Numbered from the stretch's first letter, positions 4,599 through 27,286 are shown. The stretch: 31,138 nt of DNA from an uncultured Candidatus Saccharibacteria bacterium (GCA_964586755.1 CAZPHJ010000003.1:1-31138); one strand, 5' to 3'. Notes: generated by a model from the sequence alone, not told the origin. Program-made: numbers and translations.

Positions 4599-5672
4599 AT
4601 GGCTGGATTTGCAAAAAAAGCGCCGAAAGAAAAGAAAGAAACTGGGATGGATATCATCGACACCATCAAATCAATCCAAACGAAGTTTGGAGAAGGTGCG
4701 ATTATGAAACTCGGAGACACTCCAAAAGTAGACGTTGATGTCATTCCATCAGGCTCTATGGGTCTTGATATGGCACTCGGCGTTGGAGGAATCCCCCGCG
4801 GACGCATCATCGAAATCTTTGGACCGGAATCATCTGGTAAAACTACGCTCGCCCTGCATATCGTAGCAGAAGCACAAAAAAAGGGCGGTATCTGCGCATT
4901 TATCGACGCCGAACACGCAATGGATCCAGTCTATGCCAAAAATCTTGGGGTGAATACCAACGAACTTCTCATCTCTCAACCGGACACCGGCGAGCAGGGT
5001 CTCGAAATTTGTGAATCACTTGTCCGATCAGGCAAAATTGCCGTCGTTGTAGTCGACTCTGTAGCAGCACTCACACCAAAAGATGAAATTGAGGGCGACA
5101 TGGGAGCGCAACACGTAGGCAAACAAGCTCGACTCATGTCACAAGCACTCCGCAAGCTCACGGCAATCGTTTCAAAATCAAACACCGTTGTTATATTCAT
5201 CAACCAGATCCGCATGCAAATCGGTGTCATGTTCGGCAATCCAGAAACAACTCCAGGTGGAAAGGCGCTCAAATTTTACACATCGATTCGTCTCGACATC
5301 CGTCGCATCGCTCAGATCAAAAAAGGAGAAGAGGTCGTCGGAGGTCGTACGCGTGTAAAAGTGGTCAAAAACAAGGTCGCTGCCCCATTCAAACAGACTG
5401 AGTTCGATATCATCTACGGTGAAGGTATCTCGTACGAAGGAGAACTTATGGCTCTCGGCGAAAAGATTGGCATCGTTGCCAAATCTTCCGGCGGGTCGTA
5501 CACCTATACTCCACAAAACAAAGATGGCAGCAAAGCTGAAGAAATCAAAATGGGTCGCGGGTATGACGCAACCCGTACCTTCCTGAAGCAAAACGCAAAA
5601 CTCGAAAAGGAAATGGAAAAGACTATCCGTTCACGCTTCAGCGAGATCCAAGTCGCAAGTGCAGGAGAGTAG
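4599..5672 (+). CDS. recA: RecA recombinase
   Basis: [52 protein letters not shown]. No intein or intron is visible. Confidence 0.99.
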
Positions 5673-5694
5673 AAGTAGCTTTTTAGCTTTAAAA

Positions 5695-5726
5695 AATCGC
5701 GTTCTGGGTTTACCCAGAACGCGATT
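5695..5726. terminator. Perfect 14-bp hairpin between convergent genes
   Basis: aatcgcgttctggg-ttta-cccagaacgcgatt, preceded by an A-run. Confidence 0.75.
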
Positions 5727-5733
5727 AACGCAA

Positions 5734-6171
5734 TTATAGTGTGGAAATATAATTCTTACATTCACCTTCATCCAGATTTAAGATTTCTGCCATACCTGAT
5801 ACATTACCTTTAAGGTACCTCAAATAAGAGGTACCCAACTCATTATTTTTACAAAAATAACTGTGGCTGGCATACGCAAGCTCATCGTTGTATTCCCATT
5901 CTCGAGGATGAACAGGAAAACTTCCATCAGTAGTATTATTTTCTAAAGATTTAACATATCCAGAAAATAATGCTACTACAAAATGAGCAACGTATACCCT
6001 TACTTCGTTCTCTGAAAGAGAATTAAGATTGATGTTTTGTTTTAGTATTATAAAAATACCATCAACCACGCCTTCAAAATCATGACGTTTAGGTATTTTT
6101 ATTCCATACAATATAATGGAATACTTTAAAATCGGCAATGCTAAGGTGCGGTTGTATTGAGATTTCTCCAT
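5734..6171 (-). CDS. Hypothetical protein, AT-rich accessory gene
   Basis: 145 aa ORF from ATG 6171 with its own promoter. No recognisable motif. Confidence 0.65.
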   Translation of the reverse strand: MEKSQYNRTLALPILKYSIILYGIKIPKRHDFEGVVDGIFIILKQNINLNSLSENEVRVYVAHFVVALFSGYVKSLENNTTDGSFPVHPREWEYNDELAYASHSYFCKNNELGTSYLRYLKGNVSGMAEILNLDEGECKNYISTL

Positions 6172-6189
6172 ATAAAACAATTTTTTCTT

Positions 6190-6218
6190 ATACTAATTGG
6201 ATTAAATAGATATGTCAA
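6190..6218 (-). promoter_or_regulatory. Sigma70 promoter of the 5734-6171 gene
   Basis: TTGACA-N17-TAGTAT on the minus strand. Confidence 0.65.
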
Positions 6219-6224
6219 TCAGGC

Positions 6225-6253
6225 TTGAAATTATGGGTTTTTTCGGTTAGAAT
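6225..6253 (+). promoter_or_regulatory. Sigma70 promoter of efp
   Basis: TTGAAA-N17-TAGAAT. Confidence 0.65.
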
Positions 6254-6283
6254 CCCCTTGTCTGACCTTATTATCCGTATCTG

Positions 6284-6321
6284 CTAGAGCCTAATTATCT
6301 AGCGCCTAATTATCTATTCCT
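6284..6321 (+). repeat. CTA-type 7/8-mer array directly before efp
   Basis: ctagagc-ctaattat-ctagcgc-ctaattat-ctattc-ct, then ATG. Confidence 0.8.
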
Positions 6322-6903
6322 ATGGCTAAACTCGAATACAACGAAATCCGCACCGGCAAAATCATCATTCATAATGACGAACCTTGTGAAGTGCTCGACA
6401 ACCATGTTGCCCGCACACAACAGCGCAAGCCTCAGAATGCGGTAAAACTCCGCTCACTCAAGAGTGGCAAGGCATACAACGAAGTCTTTCACGTATCTGA
6501 TTCTGCAGATGAAGCTGATCTCGAAAAGCGTGAGACCAAATTCTTGTTCGCAAACAAGGGCGAACTCTGGTTTGCCGATCCAAAAGATCCATCAAATCGC
6601 TTTAAACTTGATGAAAAGCTCATCGGCGACAAGGTCAAATTTTTGAAAGCAAACGAAATGGTCACTGCTCTCATTTGGACCAACGACGACGACGAAGAAG
6701 AGACAATTGGCGTACTCCTTCCTATCAAAGTCACCTTTGAAGTCAAAGAAGCTCCTCCTGCAGTCAAAGGCGACACTCGCACCGGCGGATCAAAACAAGT
6801 CGTTCTCGACAATGGCACGACAGTCAACACTCCTCTCTTCGTTGAAGCTGGCGACAAAATTGTGATAAACACAACTACAGGTGAATATGTCGAGAGAGCT
6901 TAG
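6322..6903 (+). CDS. efp: Elongation factor P with a non-canonical tip loop
   Basis: Three-domain EF-P pattern: VKLRSLKSG, APPAVKGDT, TPLFVEAGDKIVINTTTGEYVERA. Confidence 0.93.
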   Translation: MAKLEYNEIRTGKIIIHNDEPCEVLDNHVARTQQRKPQNAVKLRSLKSGKAYNEVFHVSDSADEADLEKRETKFLFANKGELWFADPKDPSNRFKLDEKLIGDKVKFLKANEMVTALIWTNDDDEEETIGVLLPIKVTFEVKEAPPAVKGDTRTGGSKQVVLDNGTTVNTPLFVEAGDKIVINTTTGEYVERA

Positions 6904-7046
6904 TTTTACTAAGGAAAACTAAGCTCTCGAAAACCTCGCGATTACGCGAGGCAAGAGCAACGCAAAAAGAAGGCCATCGATGCCTTCTTTTTGCGTTAAA
7001 TATAGAAATAGACAAAAAAAGTAAAGCCTCCAGTGCTGGAGGCTTT
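6894..7046. terminator. Four consecutive hairpins between convergent genes
   Basis: Stems at 6894-6928 (14 bp), 6934-6951 (7 bp), 6959-6997 (16 bp) and 7023-7046 (10 bp). The last two have A/T runs on both sides (bidirectional terminator type). Confidence 0.75.
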
Positions 7047-7072
7047 TTATGTAATATGAAAAAAATGTCTAT

Positions 7073-8005
7073 TTATTCTTTAACGATCCGTATTTTTTCC
7101 TGTATCCACGGTATGCCGGTTTCAGTTTTTACAACCAAGATATATATTCCGGTGACTGAAACAGCATCACGAACTTTGTCCATGTCTGATACATCCATAA
7201 AGTGATTAGCATAGATCAGCTTCCCTTCCAAGTTGTAAATCGAGACGTATCCCGAAAACTTACCGATTGGATCCATCACACCGGAAGTTACCCCGCCGTG
7301 GGTGCGACCTTTGTAGACTGCAGACGAATCCATTTTTTTACTGTTCCGTATATACACACGAAAACTGTAGGGAAAATTATTTACACCGACCGGAATTACC
7401 ATGGAACGTACTGTGGTTTGTACAGTTGTACCCAAGATTGGCAAAATCGTATCAATCACCGCTGGATGTGATTTTACCGGATTCTTAAAAGTAGTATCAC
7501 CATAAGAAACCACGACGGTCACCACGGCATCGTCGTATCCGGACATAAAAACCCCATCAAAATAGGCATTCATTGTGTCAGACTTATGGTTTTTAACAAC
7601 CTGCGTCGGATTGATAAAATACGGAGATAACCGTATTCCAGTATCATTTACCGCAAACGCAATGTCGATAATAGTACCGGTTGAATCAATCTCCATCACT
7701 GTGTCCGTAATGAAGTAAACATGCGGATACGGCACAGAAGTGCGTAATGTATCCACCCGGGTCGCTATTGGGCCGATAGCCACAAATGTGTCCCTCAACC
7801 CCGCCGTAGTAGCAGTATGGGTAATGTCATCATACATACGGATGTTCCGCACTATGGTATTCCCCGGTGTCATACCAGCCATAACGCTGGTCACCCTCAT
7901 GCCCATCTGGGCGTTGGTTTGACTCATGCTCACAGTGAGCTGAGCGTTAACTGAAAATGCGCCAATCAATATGGCCGCGACGAAGAGAATAGATACTTTT
8001 TTCAT
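7073..8005 (-). CDS. Secreted protein with T9SS type-A sorting-domain-like C-terminus
   Basis: Signal peptide MKKVSILFVAAILIGAFSVNA-Q. C-terminus VSIYNLEGKLIY...TGIYILVVKTETG...KIRIVKE matches the I-Y-x-L-x-G-K / G-x-Y-I-L / K-I CTD pattern, but YPNP is absent. Confidence 0.7.
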   Translation of the reverse strand: MKKVSILFVAAILIGAFSVNAQLTVSMSQTNAQMGMRVTSVMAGMTPGNTIVRNIRMYDDITHTATTAGLRDTFVAIGPIATRVDTLRTSVPYPHVYFITDTVMEIDSTGTIIDIAFAVNDTGIRLSPYFINPTQVVKNHKSDTMNAYFDGVFMSGYDDAVVTVVVSYGDTTFKNPVKSHPAVIDTILPILGTTVQTTVRSMVIPVGVNNFPYSFRVYIRNSKKMDSSAVYKGRTHGGVTSGVMDPIGKFSGYVSIYNLEGKLIYANHFMDVSDMDKVRDAVSVTGIYILVVKTETGIPWIQEKIRIVKE

Positions 8006-8063
8006 TTTTTTCTATTTTTTATTTTTGAGTTATGTAAAAGAGATTAGGGTTTTTATCGAACAC

Positions 8064-8092
8064 ACCCTAGCACATTTTAATGAAAAAGTCAA
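8064..8092 (-). promoter_or_regulatory. Sigma70 promoter of the T9SS-CTD gene
   Basis: TTGACT-N17 (ending TGc)-TAGGGT on the minus strand. Confidence 0.65.
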
Positions 8093-8101
8093 GACATAGT
8101 A

Positions 8102-8125
8102 AAAAGCACCCTTGCGGGTGCTTTT
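8102..8125 (-). terminator. Intrinsic terminator of the ABC exporter gene
   Basis: aaaagcaccc-ttgc-gggtgctttt, 5 nt after the stop. Confidence 0.85.
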
Positions 8126-8130
8126 AGATA

Positions 8131-9885
8131 TTAGATATGAAACTGTTTTTTCCAGAATGATGCATACGCACCATCTTTTTCGAGCAAGTCGCTGTGACTT
8201 CCCTGCTCTTCTACTGTTCCGTTTTTGAGAACAATAATTTCATCAAGATTAGAAACTGTGGTAAGCCGGTGAGCAATTACAATAAGTGTTTTGTCTTTCA
8301 TTGCCTTCAACACTCGTTCTATTGCTTCTTCTGTTTCAGAATCAAGCGCAGATGTTGGTTCATCAAGGATTAGGATTGGTGCATCTTTAAGAAAAGCTGC
8401 CGCAATCGCCAAACGTTGGCGCTCACCACCAGAGAGCTTAACTCCTCGTTCACCCACCTTTGTATCATATCCATGTTCTAGTCGATTAATAATAAAATCA
8501 TGACATGAGGCTTTTTTTGCAGCAGAGACAATTTCTTCTTCTCTTGCATTTGGTTTACCGAGAGCGATAATCTCACGAACAGTTCGAAATGGGAACGAAG
8601 GATCTTGTTGTACATAACTAATTAAGCTACGAATGTAATCTCGCGAAAGCTCACTTATTGAAGCTCCGCCGATAGTTATTTTTCCTTGACCATTTTCCAA
8701 TTCAAACTGGCGAAGCAGAAGTCTCGTAATTGTAGTCTTACCACTTCCGGTATGACCAACAAAACCATATCTTTTTCCAGAATGGAGATTAAAGCTAACG
8801 TTTGTGAGTACTGGCAATTCTCTTTTTGGATACCTGAACGATACATCTTGAAACAAAATCCCATGATCAACAATACTCACTGTTGAATCAAAGTGCTGTG
8901 TTCTTCTAACCTCTGGTTCCTTTTCAGAAATAATTTCTGCCATTTCGTGTGCGTCTGCAAATGATGATCGAAGCTTAAATACACTTCTCCCAAACATCCA
9001 CATATATCCCGAAACCGATGCTACAAAGAACTGAACTAGGACAACTGTTCCGACCGACACGACACCTGCCAAAGCTTGAGTAATAATGTAATACATCAAA
9101 ACAACTTCAAGCAAAACACTGAGTCCAGACTGTATAGCCCATTGACGATTACCATGCCACCATGAACGAAAACGAAATGAATGTTCACTCGCCGTCGTTT
9201 CAGCAAAATGAGCGTATTCCAAGTCTTCCCGAACATATGAATGTATCATGTGAGCACTTCCGATAATGTCACTGAGGTGTCCAGTCGTGTGCGTCTCAGC
9301 ATCTGCTGAAGCAAGATCGTGCGGTGTCCGAATGTCTGATAATTTCCAAGTAGTCAGGCCAAAGAGAACTGCCCATCCGAGCAAAATAAATCCAACAACC
9401 GGAACTGTAGAAAGTGCTACGAAAAAAACACCTGTAATCGTAATAACCACGCGAATCATTGTGAACGCAATCTCGTCAAACACAGACTCTGAGGCAATCG
9501 CAAATCTTCTGGATTTTGCACCAATAGAACCAGCAAAATTGTCTAAGAAAAAACTCGTGTCAAAACGTACAAGACGTTTGAGTGCGTAATCTCTCAAGTA
9601 CTTTATGATATGTGACTCAGTTTTTGTTAAACACCAGTCACCGAGGCGATCAATAAACCAACAAACGACCCCAATAATTGGTATAAGGGCAAATAACACC
9701 AACGGATTGTTTTTTTCCGTGAAGCTATCAATGATCCTTCGCCATATTGTCACCTTATACACGTCTCTGAGAAATGTGGTTATACCATATGACACGAGCG
9801 TGCCAACAACATACCAGCGATACTGGTAAAATGCGTGTTTCCAATGACGCCACACCGGAGCGAACAACTGTTTTTTCTTTTCCAT
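8131..9885 (-). CDS. ABC exporter, fused permease and ATPase (MsbA/multidrug half-transporter type)
   Basis: N-terminal multi-TM domain, Walker A GHTGSGKT, signature LSGGERQR, Walker B LILDEPTSALD, H-loop IAHRL. Confidence 0.96.
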   Translation of the reverse strand: MEKKKQLFAPVWRHWKHAFYQYRWYVVGTLVSYGITTFLRDVYKVTIWRRIIDSFTEKNNPLVLFALIPIIGVVCWFIDRLGDWCLTKTESHIIKYLRDYALKRLVRFDTSFFLDNFAGSIGAKSRRFAIASESVFDEIAFTMIRVVITITGVFFVALSTVPVVGFILLGWAVLFGLTTWKLSDIRTPHDLASADAETHTTGHLSDIIGSAHMIHSYVREDLEYAHFAETTASEHSFRFRSWWHGNRQWAIQSGLSVLLEVVLMYYIITQALAGVVSVGTVVLVQFFVASVSGYMWMFGRSVFKLRSSFADAHEMAEIISEKEPEVRRTQHFDSTVSIVDHGILFQDVSFRYPKRELPVLTNVSFNLHSGKRYGFVGHTGSGKTTITRLLLRQFELENGQGKITIGGASISELSRDYIRSLISYVQQDPSFPFRTVREIIALGKPNAREEEIVSAAKKASCHDFIINRLEHGYDTKVGERGVKLSGGERQRLAIAAAFLKDAPILILDEPTSALDSETEEAIERVLKAMKDKTLIVIAHRLTTVSNLDEIIVLKNGTVEEQGSHSDLLEKDGAYASFWKKQFHI

Positions 9886-9930
9886 TTTTTGAGTTTTTTT
9901 GGAGTGAGAAATTATTTTTATTGAGTTTTT

Positions 9931-10016
9931 AAAGAAAAAAGCATCCTATCATTCACAGATGACAGGATGTTTGAAACATTCACGTTGTTAGATTAAACAC
10001 TTACAACATCCTGCCA
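9931..10016 (-). promoter_or_regulatory. Transcription attenuator (mutually exclusive antiterminator and terminator)
   Basis: In the mRNA, A (10016-10005) UGGCAGGAUGUU pairs 12/12 with B (9971-9960) AACAUCCUGUCA, including one G-U. B also pairs with C (9951-9942) UGAUAGGAUG, which is followed by C-UUUUUU-C-UUU. Confidence 0.82.
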
Positions 10017-23875: not shown

Positions 23876-26800
23876 TTACACTTTTTCAATTACAATCTCA
23901 CTTCCGGCGAATGTAACACTCTCTGCAAGTACGGTTTTTTTCAAATCACCTTCGAATCCAGCGACTGTATCTTTGGCATTTTCTGGAAGTGTGAGGGTTA
24001 TGACATCGCTTGGAGTAAGTCCTTGTTTCTTTCGAGTGTCTTGAATTGCGCGCACAAGCTCACGATACTCCCCTTCACGCTTGAGCTCGGGAGTGATTTC
24101 CGTATCAAGTTCCACCTCACTTTCAATTGCAGCATCTTGAACTATTTCTTTAACATTCAATTCATCTTTCAAAATTTCATAGTATTCGACTTTCAACTTT
24201 TCACTTTTCACTTTCAACTTGTTTAGGGGTTGTCGCACAGCAAACTTTGCTTTCTGTCGAGCTTCCATTCCAAGCGTCACAGTTTCGCGAACTTTTTGCA
24301 TTTCTTCCAAGACTTTCTGACTTTCGACTTTTGACTCATATTCTGGCCAATTTTCAAAATACACGCTCTTCTCTCCTCCGAGTCGAAGCCAAATATCCTC
24401 TGCCGCAAATGGTGCAAATGGCGCCATGAGCTTCGCTGTAGTTTTCAATACAAAATACAATGTCCGCTTTGCTTCCGCATCGCCATCTTTCATACGATCA
24501 CGACTGCGTCGCACATACCAAGTCGAAAGATCATCAATGAACTCTCGAAGTGCGCGTACTGGTTCGAGCAGTTTGTAATTATCGAGATTCTCCGTCATCG
24601 TCATTGTAAGCTGGTTGAGACGAGCAACAATCCATTGATCGAGGATGTTTTCTGACTGAGCATATTCCCCACTTTCGAGCGCTGTGTCGCGATAGAGCTC
24701 ATAAAAAGCGAGTACGTTATAGAGCAAGTTGAATACTTTGTTGTGGAGTTCCGCAACAGTCTTCTCGTCGAAGTTTTTTGATTCACCTGGCTGGTTCACC
24801 GAGTACATCCACAAGCGAAGCGTATCTACTCCGTATTTTTCAATCATCTCCCACGGGTCAACAATGTTTCCAAGTGACTTACTCATCTTCTTTCCTTCTG
24901 CATCCAGAATGTGTCCGAGACAAACTACATTCTTATATGCGAGTCCGCGACCCATAAGCATTCCAATAGCGTGGAGTGTATAGAACCATCCGCGAGTTTG
25001 GTCGATTGCTTCACAAATAAAGTCTGCCGGATATGCAATCTCTTTTGTCGCAAATGGATAATGATCTTGTGCAAACGGCATCGCACCTGAGTCGAACCAG
25101 ACGTCCATCACTTCATTCACACGCTTCATCGGCTCGCCATTTTCAGAAACGAGTTCTACATGATCGATATATGGTCGATGTAGATCAAGTTCCCAATTGT
25201 GATTGTGCGGGAATGGTACATACGGAACCTCACGCACTTCGGCATTTTCAAAATAGTGAAAATCTTTTTTGTTCTCAATCATCTTGAGTGATTCCTCTGC
25301 GCCAAATCCTTGAATACCAGCCATAAGAAGCCAAGATGGTCCCCCATGACTCACGATAAGTACTTTGCGGTTCTGGAATTTGATCTCAACATCATGTATA
25401 AAATCCATCATCCAACCTTTTACCGTGTTGTATGATTCTCCTCCTTCTGGACCATTGTAAAAATTTTCTACCGTTTTTGGAAAATCTTCATGATATTTAC
25501 TCCATGGGCCTTTGTTATATATTCCAATATCCATCTCGCGAAGACGTTCGTCAAAAAGCATCTCCACTTCCCCGCCGAGTCCTTCGCGGATAATGTCCGC
25601 AGTCTCTCGAGTGCGAACGAATGGCGATGCGATTATGAGATCAATCCCCAATTCCTTGAGTTTTGAAATCTGGTCGGCGACTTGTTTACGACCAAGCTCG
25701 GTGAGGTGCACCGGCTCGTTTGGATCAGCACTCGCCATACCTTTTAGATTATGATCTGCTTCTCCGTGGCGAATAACATGGTATATATTACCAGATTTTT
25801 TGGCTTTCTTTTTCATTTCATCCAGCGAGCCAATCACTTCGATTTTTCCTGATTCTGTCATCCAGATTGGAAGTGGTGTTCCCCAGTATCGTTCACGAGA
25901 AATCGCCCAATCCTTAATATCTTTTAGCCAATCGCCAAAACGACCATCACGGATATATGATGGCTCCCAATTTATTTTTTTGTTTTCCTCGATGAGCCCC
26001 TCTTTAATCTTTGGATCACTCATGCGGATATACCAAGAATCTCGCGCGTAATAGATGAGCGGAGTCTTACAGCGCCAACAATGTGGGTATGAGTGTTCGT
26101 ACTTTTCTTTTTTAAACAAGAGTCCGCGATGTGCAAGGTCCTTGATGATGTCAATTGCAACATCCTCGTCTTTTACAAATCGTCCTTCGAGAAAATCTGT
26201 GCCAGCGATGAATGTTCCATCGAGCGCCACCATATGATGCTTCGGCAGTCCGAGCTTGGTTCCGAGTTCGAAGTCATCTGCACCGTACATTACGGCTGTA
26301 TGAACAACACCAGTTCCGTCAGTCGTAGTAACAAAATCTGCTGGATATACCTTGAATGCTTTTTCGAGTGAAGCTTGTCCTTCAATTTGAGTTTTGAGAT
26401 AAGGATAGAGCGGTTCGTATTCAAACCCGATAAGGTCCAAGCCTTTCATTTTTTCTACAATTTCAAAACCTTCTGGAAGCACACTAGCGCGCGCTTCGGC
26501 GAGAATCAAAAATTCTTCACCAACTTTTACTTTTACATATTCAATATCATTCCCCACTGCAAGCGCGACGTTGCCTGGCAATGTCCATGGAGTTGTCGTC
26601 CACGCAAGTATGTATGTATTTTCCGGACTTTCAACTTTCGACTTTATAACTTTGAACTTGGCCGTGACCGACAGGTCACGGTCGTCCTGATATCCCTGTG
26701 CAAGTTCGTGCGACGAAAGCGCAGTTCCACAGCGCGGACACCATGACACAATACGATAGTCTTTGTAGACGAGTCCTTGATCGTTTACTTTTTGCAACAC

Positions 26801-27286
26801 ATTCCACACAGACTCGATATATGAGTTGTGATACGTCACATACGGATTCTTTTGATCCACCCAATAGCCGATACGGTCGGTAAATTTTTCCCACAAATCT
26901 GTGTATTGCCAAACGCTTTCTTTACACTTGTCGTTGAACTTCGCGATACCATATTCTTCAATCGCTTTTTTGGAATTGAGGCCGAGCGCTTTTTCTACTT
27001 GGAGTTCCACTGGAAGTCCATGCGTATCCCATCCCCCTTTTCGACGAACATGGAATCCCTGCATAGTTTTATAGCGAGGAATCGCATCTTTGAATGCACG
27101 CGCTTCGAGATGGTGAATTCCTGGTTTACCATTCGCAGTTGGTGGACCTTCGAAGAATACAAACTCACCTTTTGGCGAATCTTTTTTGAGTGTCTCCTCA
27201 AAGACATTATTCTCCTTCCAAAAACCGAGAACTTTTTCTTCTCGTTCTGCTGCGGCTGATTTTGGCTTATTTTCAGGTGTTTCCAT
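23876..27286 (-). CDS. ileS: Isoleucyl-tRNA synthetase (type 2) with an inserted histidine-phosphatase domain
   Basis: EGPPTANGKPGIHH, GWDTHGLPVE, WTTTPWTLP, HSYPHCWRC, WAISRERYWGTP, DVWFDSG, EAIDQTRGWF, KMSKS. Insert approx. 25225-25790 carries RHG...SP..R..ET...E...SHG. Confidence 0.98.
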   Translation of the reverse strand: METPENKPKSAAAEREEKVLGFWKENNVFEETLKKDSPKGEFVFFEGPPTANGKPGIHHLEARAFKDAIPRYKTMQGFHVRRKGGWDTHGLPVELQVEKALGLNSKKAIEEYGIAKFNDKCKESVWQYTDLWEKFTDRIGYWVDQKNPYVTYHNSYIESVWNVLQKVNDQGLVYKDYRIVSWCPRCGTALSSHELAQGYQDDRDLSVTAKFKVIKSKVESPENTYILAWTTTPWTLPGNVALAVGNDIEYVKVKVGEEFLILAEARASVLPEGFEIVEKMKGLDLIGFEYEPLYPYLKTQIEGQASLEKAFKVYPADFVTTTDGTGVVHTAVMYGADDFELGTKLGLPKHHMVALDGTFIAGTDFLEGRFVKDEDVAIDIIKDLAHRGLLFKKEKYEHSYPHCWRCKTPLIYYARDSWYIRMSDPKIKEGLIEENKKINWEPSYIRDGRFGDWLKDIKDWAISRERYWGTPLPIWMTESGKIEVIGSLDEMKKKAKKSGNIYHVIRHGEADHNLKGMASADPNEPVHLTELGRKQVADQISKLKELGIDLIIASPFVRTRETADIIREGLGGEVEMLFDERLREMDIGIYNKGPWSKYHEDFPKTVENFYNGPEGGESYNTVKGWMMDFIHDVEIKFQNRKVLIVSHGGPSWLLMAGIQGFGAEESLKMIENKKDFHYFENAEVREVPYVPFPHNHNWELDLHRPYIDHVELVSENGEPMKRVNEVMDVWFDSGAMPFAQDHYPFATKEIAYPADFICEAIDQTRGWFYTLHAIGMLMGRGLAYKNVVCLGHILDAEGKKMSKSLGNIVDPWEMIEKYGVDTLRLWMYSVNQPGESKNFDEKTVAELHNKVFNLLYNVLAFYELYRDTALESGEYAQSENILDQWIVARLNQLTMTMTENLDNYKLLEPVRALREFIDDLSTWYVRRSRDRMKDGDAEAKRTLYFVLKTTAKLMAPFAPFAAEDIWLRLGGEKSVYFENWPEYESKVESQKVLEEMQKVRETVTLGMEARQKAKFAVRQPLNKLKVKSEKLKVEYYEILKDELNVKEIVQDAAIESEVELDTEITPELKREGEYRELVRAIQDTRKKQGLTPSDVITLTLPENAKDTVAGFEGDLKKTVLAESVTFAGSEIVIEKV
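24188..24222 (-). repeat. In-frame heptamer array inside ileS (encodes KLKVKSEKLKVE)
   Basis: Plus strand gactttc-aactttt-cactttt-cactttc-aacttgt. Confidence 0.85.
24311..24339 (-). repeat. In-frame 7/8-mer array inside ileS (encodes ESKVESQKV)
   Basis: Plus strand gactttct-gactttc-gactttt-gactcat. Confidence 0.75.
26626..26661 (-). repeat. In-frame 7/8-mer array inside ileS (encodes KFKVIKSKVES)
   Basis: Plus strand gactttc-aactttc-gactttat-aactttg-aacttgg. Confidence 0.8.

Follow-up and report, generated by a model that had tools for sequence, protein, structure and literature searches.

[quoted passage not shown] The window that was analysed, a stretch of 31,138 nucleotides from an uncultured Candidatus Saccharibacteria bacterium, is the complete contig C3 of the bin G000 (692 kb in 81 contigs, 87.6% completeness, 0.77% contamination), in which no 16S gene was found; genomes of the order are 0.4-1.3 Mb in size. 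A first-pass annotation of the window had taken the genome to be a CPR genome, and this is borne out by the GTDB genus that it shares with G013, a Candidatus Saccharibacteria genome, by its size at the given completeness and by the fact that no Omp85 was found in it. The same annotation had picked out three marks of T9SS cargo in one gene, namely a Sec signal, a Gln at position +1 and a type-A-like C-terminal domain (CTD), all of which are present. It went on to propose that the gene had either been transferred from a Bacteroidota host or neighbour, or that it encodes an effector built to be displayed by the T9SS of the host, and that either would point to the identity of that host; these proposals have fared less well. 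On balance we favour a third explanation, that the gene probably encodes a resident secreted surface or adhesin-like protein, with a tail that derives from the T9SS type A domain but has been trimmed, can be exchanged and has taken on another use.

The gene and its neighbourhood

The gene lies on the minus strand at 7073..8005, stop codon included, and its 310-aa ORF has orthologues at 62-90% identity with the same arrangement of neighbouring genes, in agreement with the earlier claim that these positions encode a secreted protein. Its upstream neighbour is an ABC exporter gene (8131-9885, minus strand), its other neighbour is efp (6322-6903, plus strand), and the wider neighbourhood is made up of housekeeping genes such as ftsK, recA, metG, ileS, a proS-like gene and one for an M16 peptidase. 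As read from the sequence, a terminator-like hairpin 3' of the ABC exporter gene (8099..8123, minus strand, AAAAGCACCCGCAAGGGTGCTTTTT) would divide two transcription units, and it is followed by a candidate promoter (8064..8092, minus strand) made up of TTGACT, 17 nt and TGc-TAGGGT, the last being an extended -10. A candidate promoter of like build (TTGACT, 17 nt, TGc-TAATGT) stands 5' of the gene at L051, an orthologous locus, and a consensus promoter scan of the window picked out a different, weak candidate at 8103-8074. On the other side of the gene a strong intrinsic terminator (7013..7046, minus strand) has a 10-bp stem with 5 GC pairs and a T run after it, and both this hairpin and the 3' flank are kept in the loci L005, L009 and L051. 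Given the hairpin after the ABC gene, the candidate promoter and the terminator after the stop, the 310-aa gene looks monocistronic.

Four further assemblies, which come from different samples, share the order of ABC exporter, gene and efp, with proteins that are 62-81% identical, and so does G013, where the orthologue is 90% identical and lies on a 91-kb contig (CAYVZI010000003.1, uncultured Candidatus Saccharibacteria bacterium). In an alignment of contigs from independent runs to positions 5600-10000, the stretch 6757-10000 is spanned at ~99% identity by a single contig (4946 nt) from an independent study, and each of two further runs has a contig across one of the junctions, with efp in one case and with the ABC exporter gene in the other. 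Because of these bridging contigs and of the gene order common to other assemblies a chimera is ruled out, and the doubt over the assembly raised in the first-pass annotation can be laid to rest: the contig is non-chimeric. A recent import from Bacteroidota, or an artefact of assembly or binning, would fit the Bacteroidota-like design of the protein; against it stand the two bridged junctions, a gene order kept at 62-90% identity, dS values that are saturated or nearly so when the more distant orthologues are compared, and a native GC content (0.43 in the gene region versus 0.41-0.42 in the large contigs of G000).

There is strain-level variability at either end of the gene. In a contig from two other runs 75 nt of the gene (window 7873-7949, residues ~19-44), which encode the end of the signal peptide and the first strand, are replaced by 78 other letters, and the 116-nt spacer after efp (window 6899-7016) is replaced by 217 letters. 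The stretch occurs in wastewater and freshwater metagenomes from several studies. Elsewhere in the window, the isoleucyl-tRNA synthetase encoded at 23876-27286 (minus strand) has a complete histidine-phosphatase domain inserted at residues 504-666 (PF00300, 109.7 bits), and a DUF11 protein of 640 aa (PF01345; 19345-21267, minus strand) is probably another surface protein.

Signal peptide, body and tail

The N-terminus of the protein, MKKVSILFVAAILIGAFSVNA followed by QLTV, is a typical signal for Sec and signal peptidase I. The signal peptide itself would comprise residues 1-21 (MKKVSILFVAAILIGAFSVNA; 7943..8005, minus strand), with cleavage predicted before Gln22 (VNA/Q), as in the first-pass annotation, on the basis of a heuristic signal-peptide scan and of conservation: A21 and Q22 are invariant among the orthologues, Q22 is also invariant in a nine-sequence alignment (A2), and Gln22 is kept across the family defined by the N-terminal domain (the N-domain family) down to 21-30% identity. 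In having a Gln immediately after the predicted cleavage site the protein is like the substrates of the Q-rule of Bacteroidetes, in which the Gln at +1 of signal peptidase I substrates is cyclised by a glutaminyl cyclase (PMC5837995, PMC10653852). It has been reported that Gln at +1 makes up a mean share of 71% in Bacteroidetes and between 2 and 77% outside them, and that it is no generic sorting signal (PMC5837995). Unlike in Bacteroidetes, the share in G000 is about a quarter (~8-10 of some 33 clean signal peptides, by a rough heuristic), and a search of the bin for cyclases of the Glu_cyclase_2 type (PF05096), which was positive in control genomes, found none.

Gln at +1 in G000 is not confined to proteins with a T9SS-type tail, since a T4SS-pilin-like protein (G000:C4:14653-15042, L042; PF18895, 38.6 bits) has a signal peptide ending LAFA/Q. 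Further A/Q signal peptides are found in G000 on small secreted proteins with no Pfam family (C5:16487-16987, C5:2820-3206, C6:955-1944, C7:12975-13826, C49:1326-1904 and C60:2226-2831; L043-L049), and those of C49 and C60 look like paralogues. Among the complete CTD-bearing ORFs of the order the residue is present in 8 of 11, as it is in most members of the N-domain family, and this enrichment in CPR proteins with CTDs, which would not be explained by a plain structural module, hints at a functional link.

The mature protein is predicted to begin with an N-terminal module (residues 22-234; 7304..7942, minus strand) of two FN3/Ig-like beta-sandwiches (~24-126 and 134-234), modelled by AlphaFold2 (AF2) with a pLDDT of >90, and to continue through a linker (residues 235-247; 7265..7303, minus strand) into the tail. 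The whole model has a pLDDT of 85.8 with an alignment of 24 sequences (A8), from which isolated CTD pieces were left out. The TSGV linker noticed earlier is placed at residues 240-243, within the sole low-confidence stretch of the model (240-247, pLDDT <50), and it is in the linker that DNA similarity to L051 stops. The N-terminal module matches no Pfam family and contains no recognised enzyme domain, and searches of the whole model against the PDB with Foldseek were set aside as a clue to function, as they returned nothing more specific than tandem FN3/Ig arrays and the stalks of bacterial adhesins. The protein is like the stalks of fibrillar adhesins (Gram-positive FN3/Ig arrays, PDB 5u6f, 4mkm and 7c7u) in being secreted, in its tandem beta-sandwiches and in having no enzyme domain, but it differs from them in having two stalk-like domains only, no recognised adhesive head and no LPXTG signal or sortase.

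Neighbours among predicted structures (AFDB and ESM Atlas) are mostly the C-terminal ends of Bacteroidota proteins with the arrangement FN3-FN3-Por_Secre_tail, the best having a TM score of 0.47 and a Foldseek E of 1e-7 to 1e-8 and being aligned to the C-terminus of the match. The ESM Atlas neighbours are clusters in which 75-99% of the members carry PF18962, and those in AFDB are proteins named as T9SS type A sorting domain-containing. The likeness to these small Bacteroidota proteins would lie in the overall design of two beta-sandwiches and a tail; unlike them, however, the window protein has a body with no detectable sequence similarity to theirs, and the TM score is <0.5.

The tail itself (residues 248-310; 7076..7264, minus strand) is recognised as a shortened T9SS type-A-like CTD from its match to TIGR04183, from the AF2 model and from hhalign. 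In the model it has strands at 252-257, 263-269, 286-294 and 299-307 and a short helix at 276-281 (pLDDT 75-88). A GxY motif (G286-I-Y288) is nearly invariant in the alignment A6 and the C-terminal EKIRIVKE is present, and YPNP is absent. The claim that the last ~65 aa follow the type A pattern holds as far as the TIGR04183-type pattern itself is concerned and fails on its extent: only positions ~20-63 of the 72 in the model are matched, with 1-19 unmatched, so that ~57 aa, and not the 65-75 of a full domain, lie within the pattern and its first, YPNP strand is missing. The match, which stops 13 residues short of the stop codon of a protein with a signal peptide at residues 1-21, scores 21.9 bits with the whole protein, 23.9 in a six-frame search of the genome and 25.0 with the tail alone against a cut-off of 23 (E-values 1.3e-4 to 1.3e-5), and PF18962 reaches 14-17 bits, under its cut-off of 27, so the suggested hmmsearch straddles the cut-off with one family and falls short with the other.

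In common with the type A CTDs of Bacteroidota (RgpB, HBP35, PorZ, mirolase) the tail is C-terminal, stands after a flexible linker and belongs to a protein with a predicted Sec signal and Gln at +1, and it resembles the second half of TIGR04183 and PF18962 in its v.iYdl.Gk.v strand pair, its GxY motif and its basic C-terminal strand. It differs from them in being ~57 aa rather than 70-80 aa long, in the missing YPNP strand, in scores that lie at or below the curated cut-offs and in having, in the AF2 prediction, a short helix at the place of beta5. The complete seven-stranded 3+4 sandwich of T9SS domains (PMC11285876) is absent from the predicted structure, in which four strands and the helix occupy residues 252-307.

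It might be argued that the likeness is due to chance and that the tail is no more than a small beta domain of a common kind in which a GxY motif happens to occur, for the Pfam match is under its cut-off, hhalign against the canonical CTDs of the family gives a probability of 37% over 40 columns (E 3.7e-4), and no solved structure was matched by a profile of the short tails. Eight diverged tails of the short type, with mutual identities of 18-95%, were however each compared independently, and all eight have TIGR04183 as their best family, their few other matches being nearly all to T9SS signal families; moreover canonical CTDs occur at the same junction in the same family and even at the same locus, as described below, and we regard chance as very unlikely. 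From these eight matches, the hhalign result, the canonical CTDs in the family and the one at the L051 junction, common descent follows, and on such comparisons the tail is shown to descend from a T9SS type A sorting domain and confirmed as a borderline but genuine relative, apparently a trimmed one, of the type A CTD. MAFFT alignments in which long and short members were mixed, or to which isolated CTD pieces were added, misplaced the short tail and were left out of the conclusions on the tail. A possible second CTD in G000 (C2:37199-37360, 17.8 bits) was rejected as an internal beta-sandwich, which in an ORF of 1125 aa stands ~200 residues short of the C-terminus.

The N-domain family and the exchange of its tail

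With the full protein as query only 4 close relatives were found among 5.8 billion clusters, and a profile of the N-terminal 245 residues found 21 clusters among 1.84 billion representatives. Most members of this N-domain family are 430-750 aa long, have an A/Q signal peptide, carry additional domains in the middle and end in a canonical CTD of full length (TIGR04183, 37-49 bits). The contig of one long member, L033, encodes a SecA 67% identical to that of G000, near dnaE and the gene for a large surface protein with FN3 domains; another family member lies on an NCBI contig of 127 kb that carries SecA, RNase J, SBP_bac_5 and a PilC-type gene; and further family contigs carry SecG with RNase J, SecA with dnaE, and ftsZ, ftsA and mreB. 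All of the readable contexts look Saccharibacteria-like, and none of those among the 21 clusters is a Bacteroidota context. Next to long members, at L033:6235-7857 and L036:6711-9287, large proteins rich in FN3 domains are encoded, which begin with a signal peptide and have a membrane helix at the C-terminus. Such a helix is the usual anchor of CPR surface proteins, and the tailed proteins are without one; in this the window protein is unlike the CPR surface proteins that neighbour its relatives.

In a maximum-likelihood tree of the N-domain, the eight proteins with short tails (252-310 aa) and a ninth, P0005 (326 aa), form one clade (100/99), which is nested among long members with canonical CTDs, and from this nested position it follows that the loss of the middle domains and the shortening of the tail are both derived. 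P0005 has an N-domain 66% identical to that of the window protein and falls inside the short-tail clade (97/98), but its C-terminus is a canonical CTD (VLIYPNPVQNQFTIQ...). When its contig, L051:1-1192 (1192 nt), was compared with window 6850-8250, a 69% match to the window locus was found from the 5' flank to ~codon 240 and one of 73-84% over the 3' flank and terminator, with the tail region between them unmatched. As both flanks and the N-domain match the window locus, a chimeric origin of P0005 is ruled out, and the comparison shows that only the tail module has been exchanged at an orthologous locus, the tail being in this sense an exchangeable cassette.

Pairwise Nei-Gojobori estimates between orthologues give a dN/dS of 0.06-0.15 for the N-domain and of 0.11-0.22 for the tail, the more distant pairs having a dS that is close to or at saturation. 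With low values in each part, both the N-domain and the tail are maintained, and the tail is under purifying selection.

Tails of this type are not restricted to the N-domain family. TIGR04183 matches above cut-off were found in 19 of 151 genomes of the order (13%), and a phylum-wide sample of 301 genomes has 16 with such matches (5%), among them a single-contig genome of 1.0 Mb with 4 copies and a three-contig genome with 2; several of the matches adjoin lepA, pgk or ftsH. The N-domain profile has no match in the loci of the other CTD proteins of the order (L013-L031), which excludes these as relatives and means that the tail is borne by varied and unrelated cargo. Two apparently closed Patescibacteria genomes from outside the class of the window, G397 (single contig, 1.0 Mb) and G477 (contig C1), have 4 and 2 full-length TIGR04183 tails respectively, at 44-47 bits. 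In G081 (L013, L031) there are 10 TIGR04183 matches, clustered on a small number of contigs with a lower GC content (0.38-0.40), where small genes that combine Gln at +1 and a CTD stand in tandem; these represent either a real expansion or mis-binned Bacteroidota contigs, and some of the matches on short contigs of odd GC, those of G081 included, may be mis-binned.

Matches on such short contigs in related MAGs, for example in G081, are a further observation that would favour a recent import or a binning artefact at the window locus as well. Added to the evidence from the neighbourhood of the gene, the failure to find a homologue in a Bacteroidota context, among the readable contexts from 1.84 billion representatives, leaves that explanation largely refuted, and both an artefact and the transfer from a Bacteroidota host or neighbour that had been proposed must be considered extremely improbable.

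The tail in a cell without a detectable T9SS

HMM searches of G000 for SprA_N, PorV and Omp85 found none in this 87.6% complete MAG, as the first-pass annotation would have led one to expect of a CPR cell, and no PorV, Omp85 or SprA was found in four near-complete relatives with tails above cut-off or in G013 (97-100% complete), the last of which has an orthologue with the short tail and is a genome of the same genus with 100% completeness. Candidate partners in the processing of the tail were also sought in G000, and sortase, Glu_cyclase_2 and Peptidase_C25 were not found there; Peptidase_C25 was likewise not found in four of these five relatives. The 14 control genomes recovered PorV, Omp85, Glu_cyclase_2 and sortase, and SprA and C25 were searched without a positive control. 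The producer would thus appear to be a CPR cell with no detectable outer-membrane or T9SS genes and, unlike the producers of T9SS cargo in Bacteroidota, with no detectable Omp85 or PorU-type peptidase, in which the tail would be unable to act as a T9SS export signal.

The effector hypothesis avoids this difficulty by having the protein enter the periplasm of a Bacteroidota host, there to be exported and displayed by the T9SS of the host. It finds some encouragement in the cargo-like combination of signal peptide, Gln at +1 and CTD, and in the wastewater and freshwater habitats, which are rich in Bacteroidota. Cultivated Saccharibacteria, however, live on Actinomycetota, the N-domain family is old and diverse within Saccharibacteria, and a protein secreted by an epibiont must first reach the periplasm of its host, for which we know of no route. 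The tail is also poorly suited to such a task, as both TIGR04183 and AF2 indicate that it is without the first strands of the 3+4 sandwich. That sandwich is reported as essential; its integrity, the motif at the C-terminus and the beta3-beta4 loop are all of importance to the T9SS, and one CTD does not replace another even within the Bacteroidota, a CTD taken from a second species not being properly secreted by P. gingivalis (PMC11285876). It is thus most improbable that the protein was built for the T9SS of a host. As neither this reading nor transfer is supported, the tail is uninformative on host identity, contrary to what had been hoped of it.

It is also conceivable that Patescibacteria read CTDs of the T9SS type, often together with an N-terminal Gln, by means of a machinery of their own that is independent of an outer membrane and serves in sorting, anchoring, hand-over or the targeting of a partner. 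In keeping with this, tails of the kind turn up on unrelated proteins in 13% of genomes in the order and 5% in the phylum, closed-looking ones included, the tail of the window protein is under purifying selection and is swapped as a cassette at a fixed junction, and Gln at +1 is found in 8/11 of the CTD ORFs and most family members as against roughly a quarter of signal peptides in G000. No candidate for a partner has come to light among C25/PorU-like peptidases, sortases and PorV, however, the tail is absent from most genomes of the order, and the loss of a third of the domain would hardly be tolerated by a strict recognition signal. A dedicated machinery of this kind seems to us unlikely, if less far-fetched than use of a foreign T9SS. 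Were it to exist, the tail would be a working signal and more than a fold, and its exchange at this locus would switch the protein between two forms of that signal.

The explanation that we prefer, a resident surface or adhesin-like protein with a repurposed tail, would run as follows. Sec would carry the protein across the membrane and signal peptidase I would cleave it ahead of Gln22, and the mature form would have the two FN3/Ig-like beta-sandwiches first, then the flexible linker and last a small beta domain at the C-terminus. Within the genus this last domain would have lost its first strands, including the part with YPNP, and gained a short helix, and it would have been kept by purifying selection in cells with neither an outer membrane nor a T9SS. 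Most likely it serves as a folded end-module, which may act in retention on the cell's own surface, in self-association or in contact with the surface of a partner; a role in adhesion or surface retention is suggested by the fold and by the absence of enzyme domains only. The cargo-like design of Gln at +1, FN3-like body and CTD is best read as an old inheritance of a gene or module from an FCB-type ancestor, with no recent import.

No description of T9SS-type CTDs in Saccharibacteria or the CPR was found in the literature, and what is new here is the series from full to trimmed tails within one family, the swap of a tail in situ, the selection figures and the frequencies in the order and phylum. 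There is also a warning for annotation, in that the label "T9SS type A sorting domain-containing protein" implies neither a T9SS, nor a Bacteroidota origin of the contig, nor a Bacteroidota host. A T9SS sorting domain that is under selection in single-membrane bacteria with no T9SS would have a second life outside type IX secretion, and here it is carried by a protein family that appears private to Saccharibacteria. It may provide a handle on how CPR epibionts build and decorate their surfaces, which is central to their attachment to a host.
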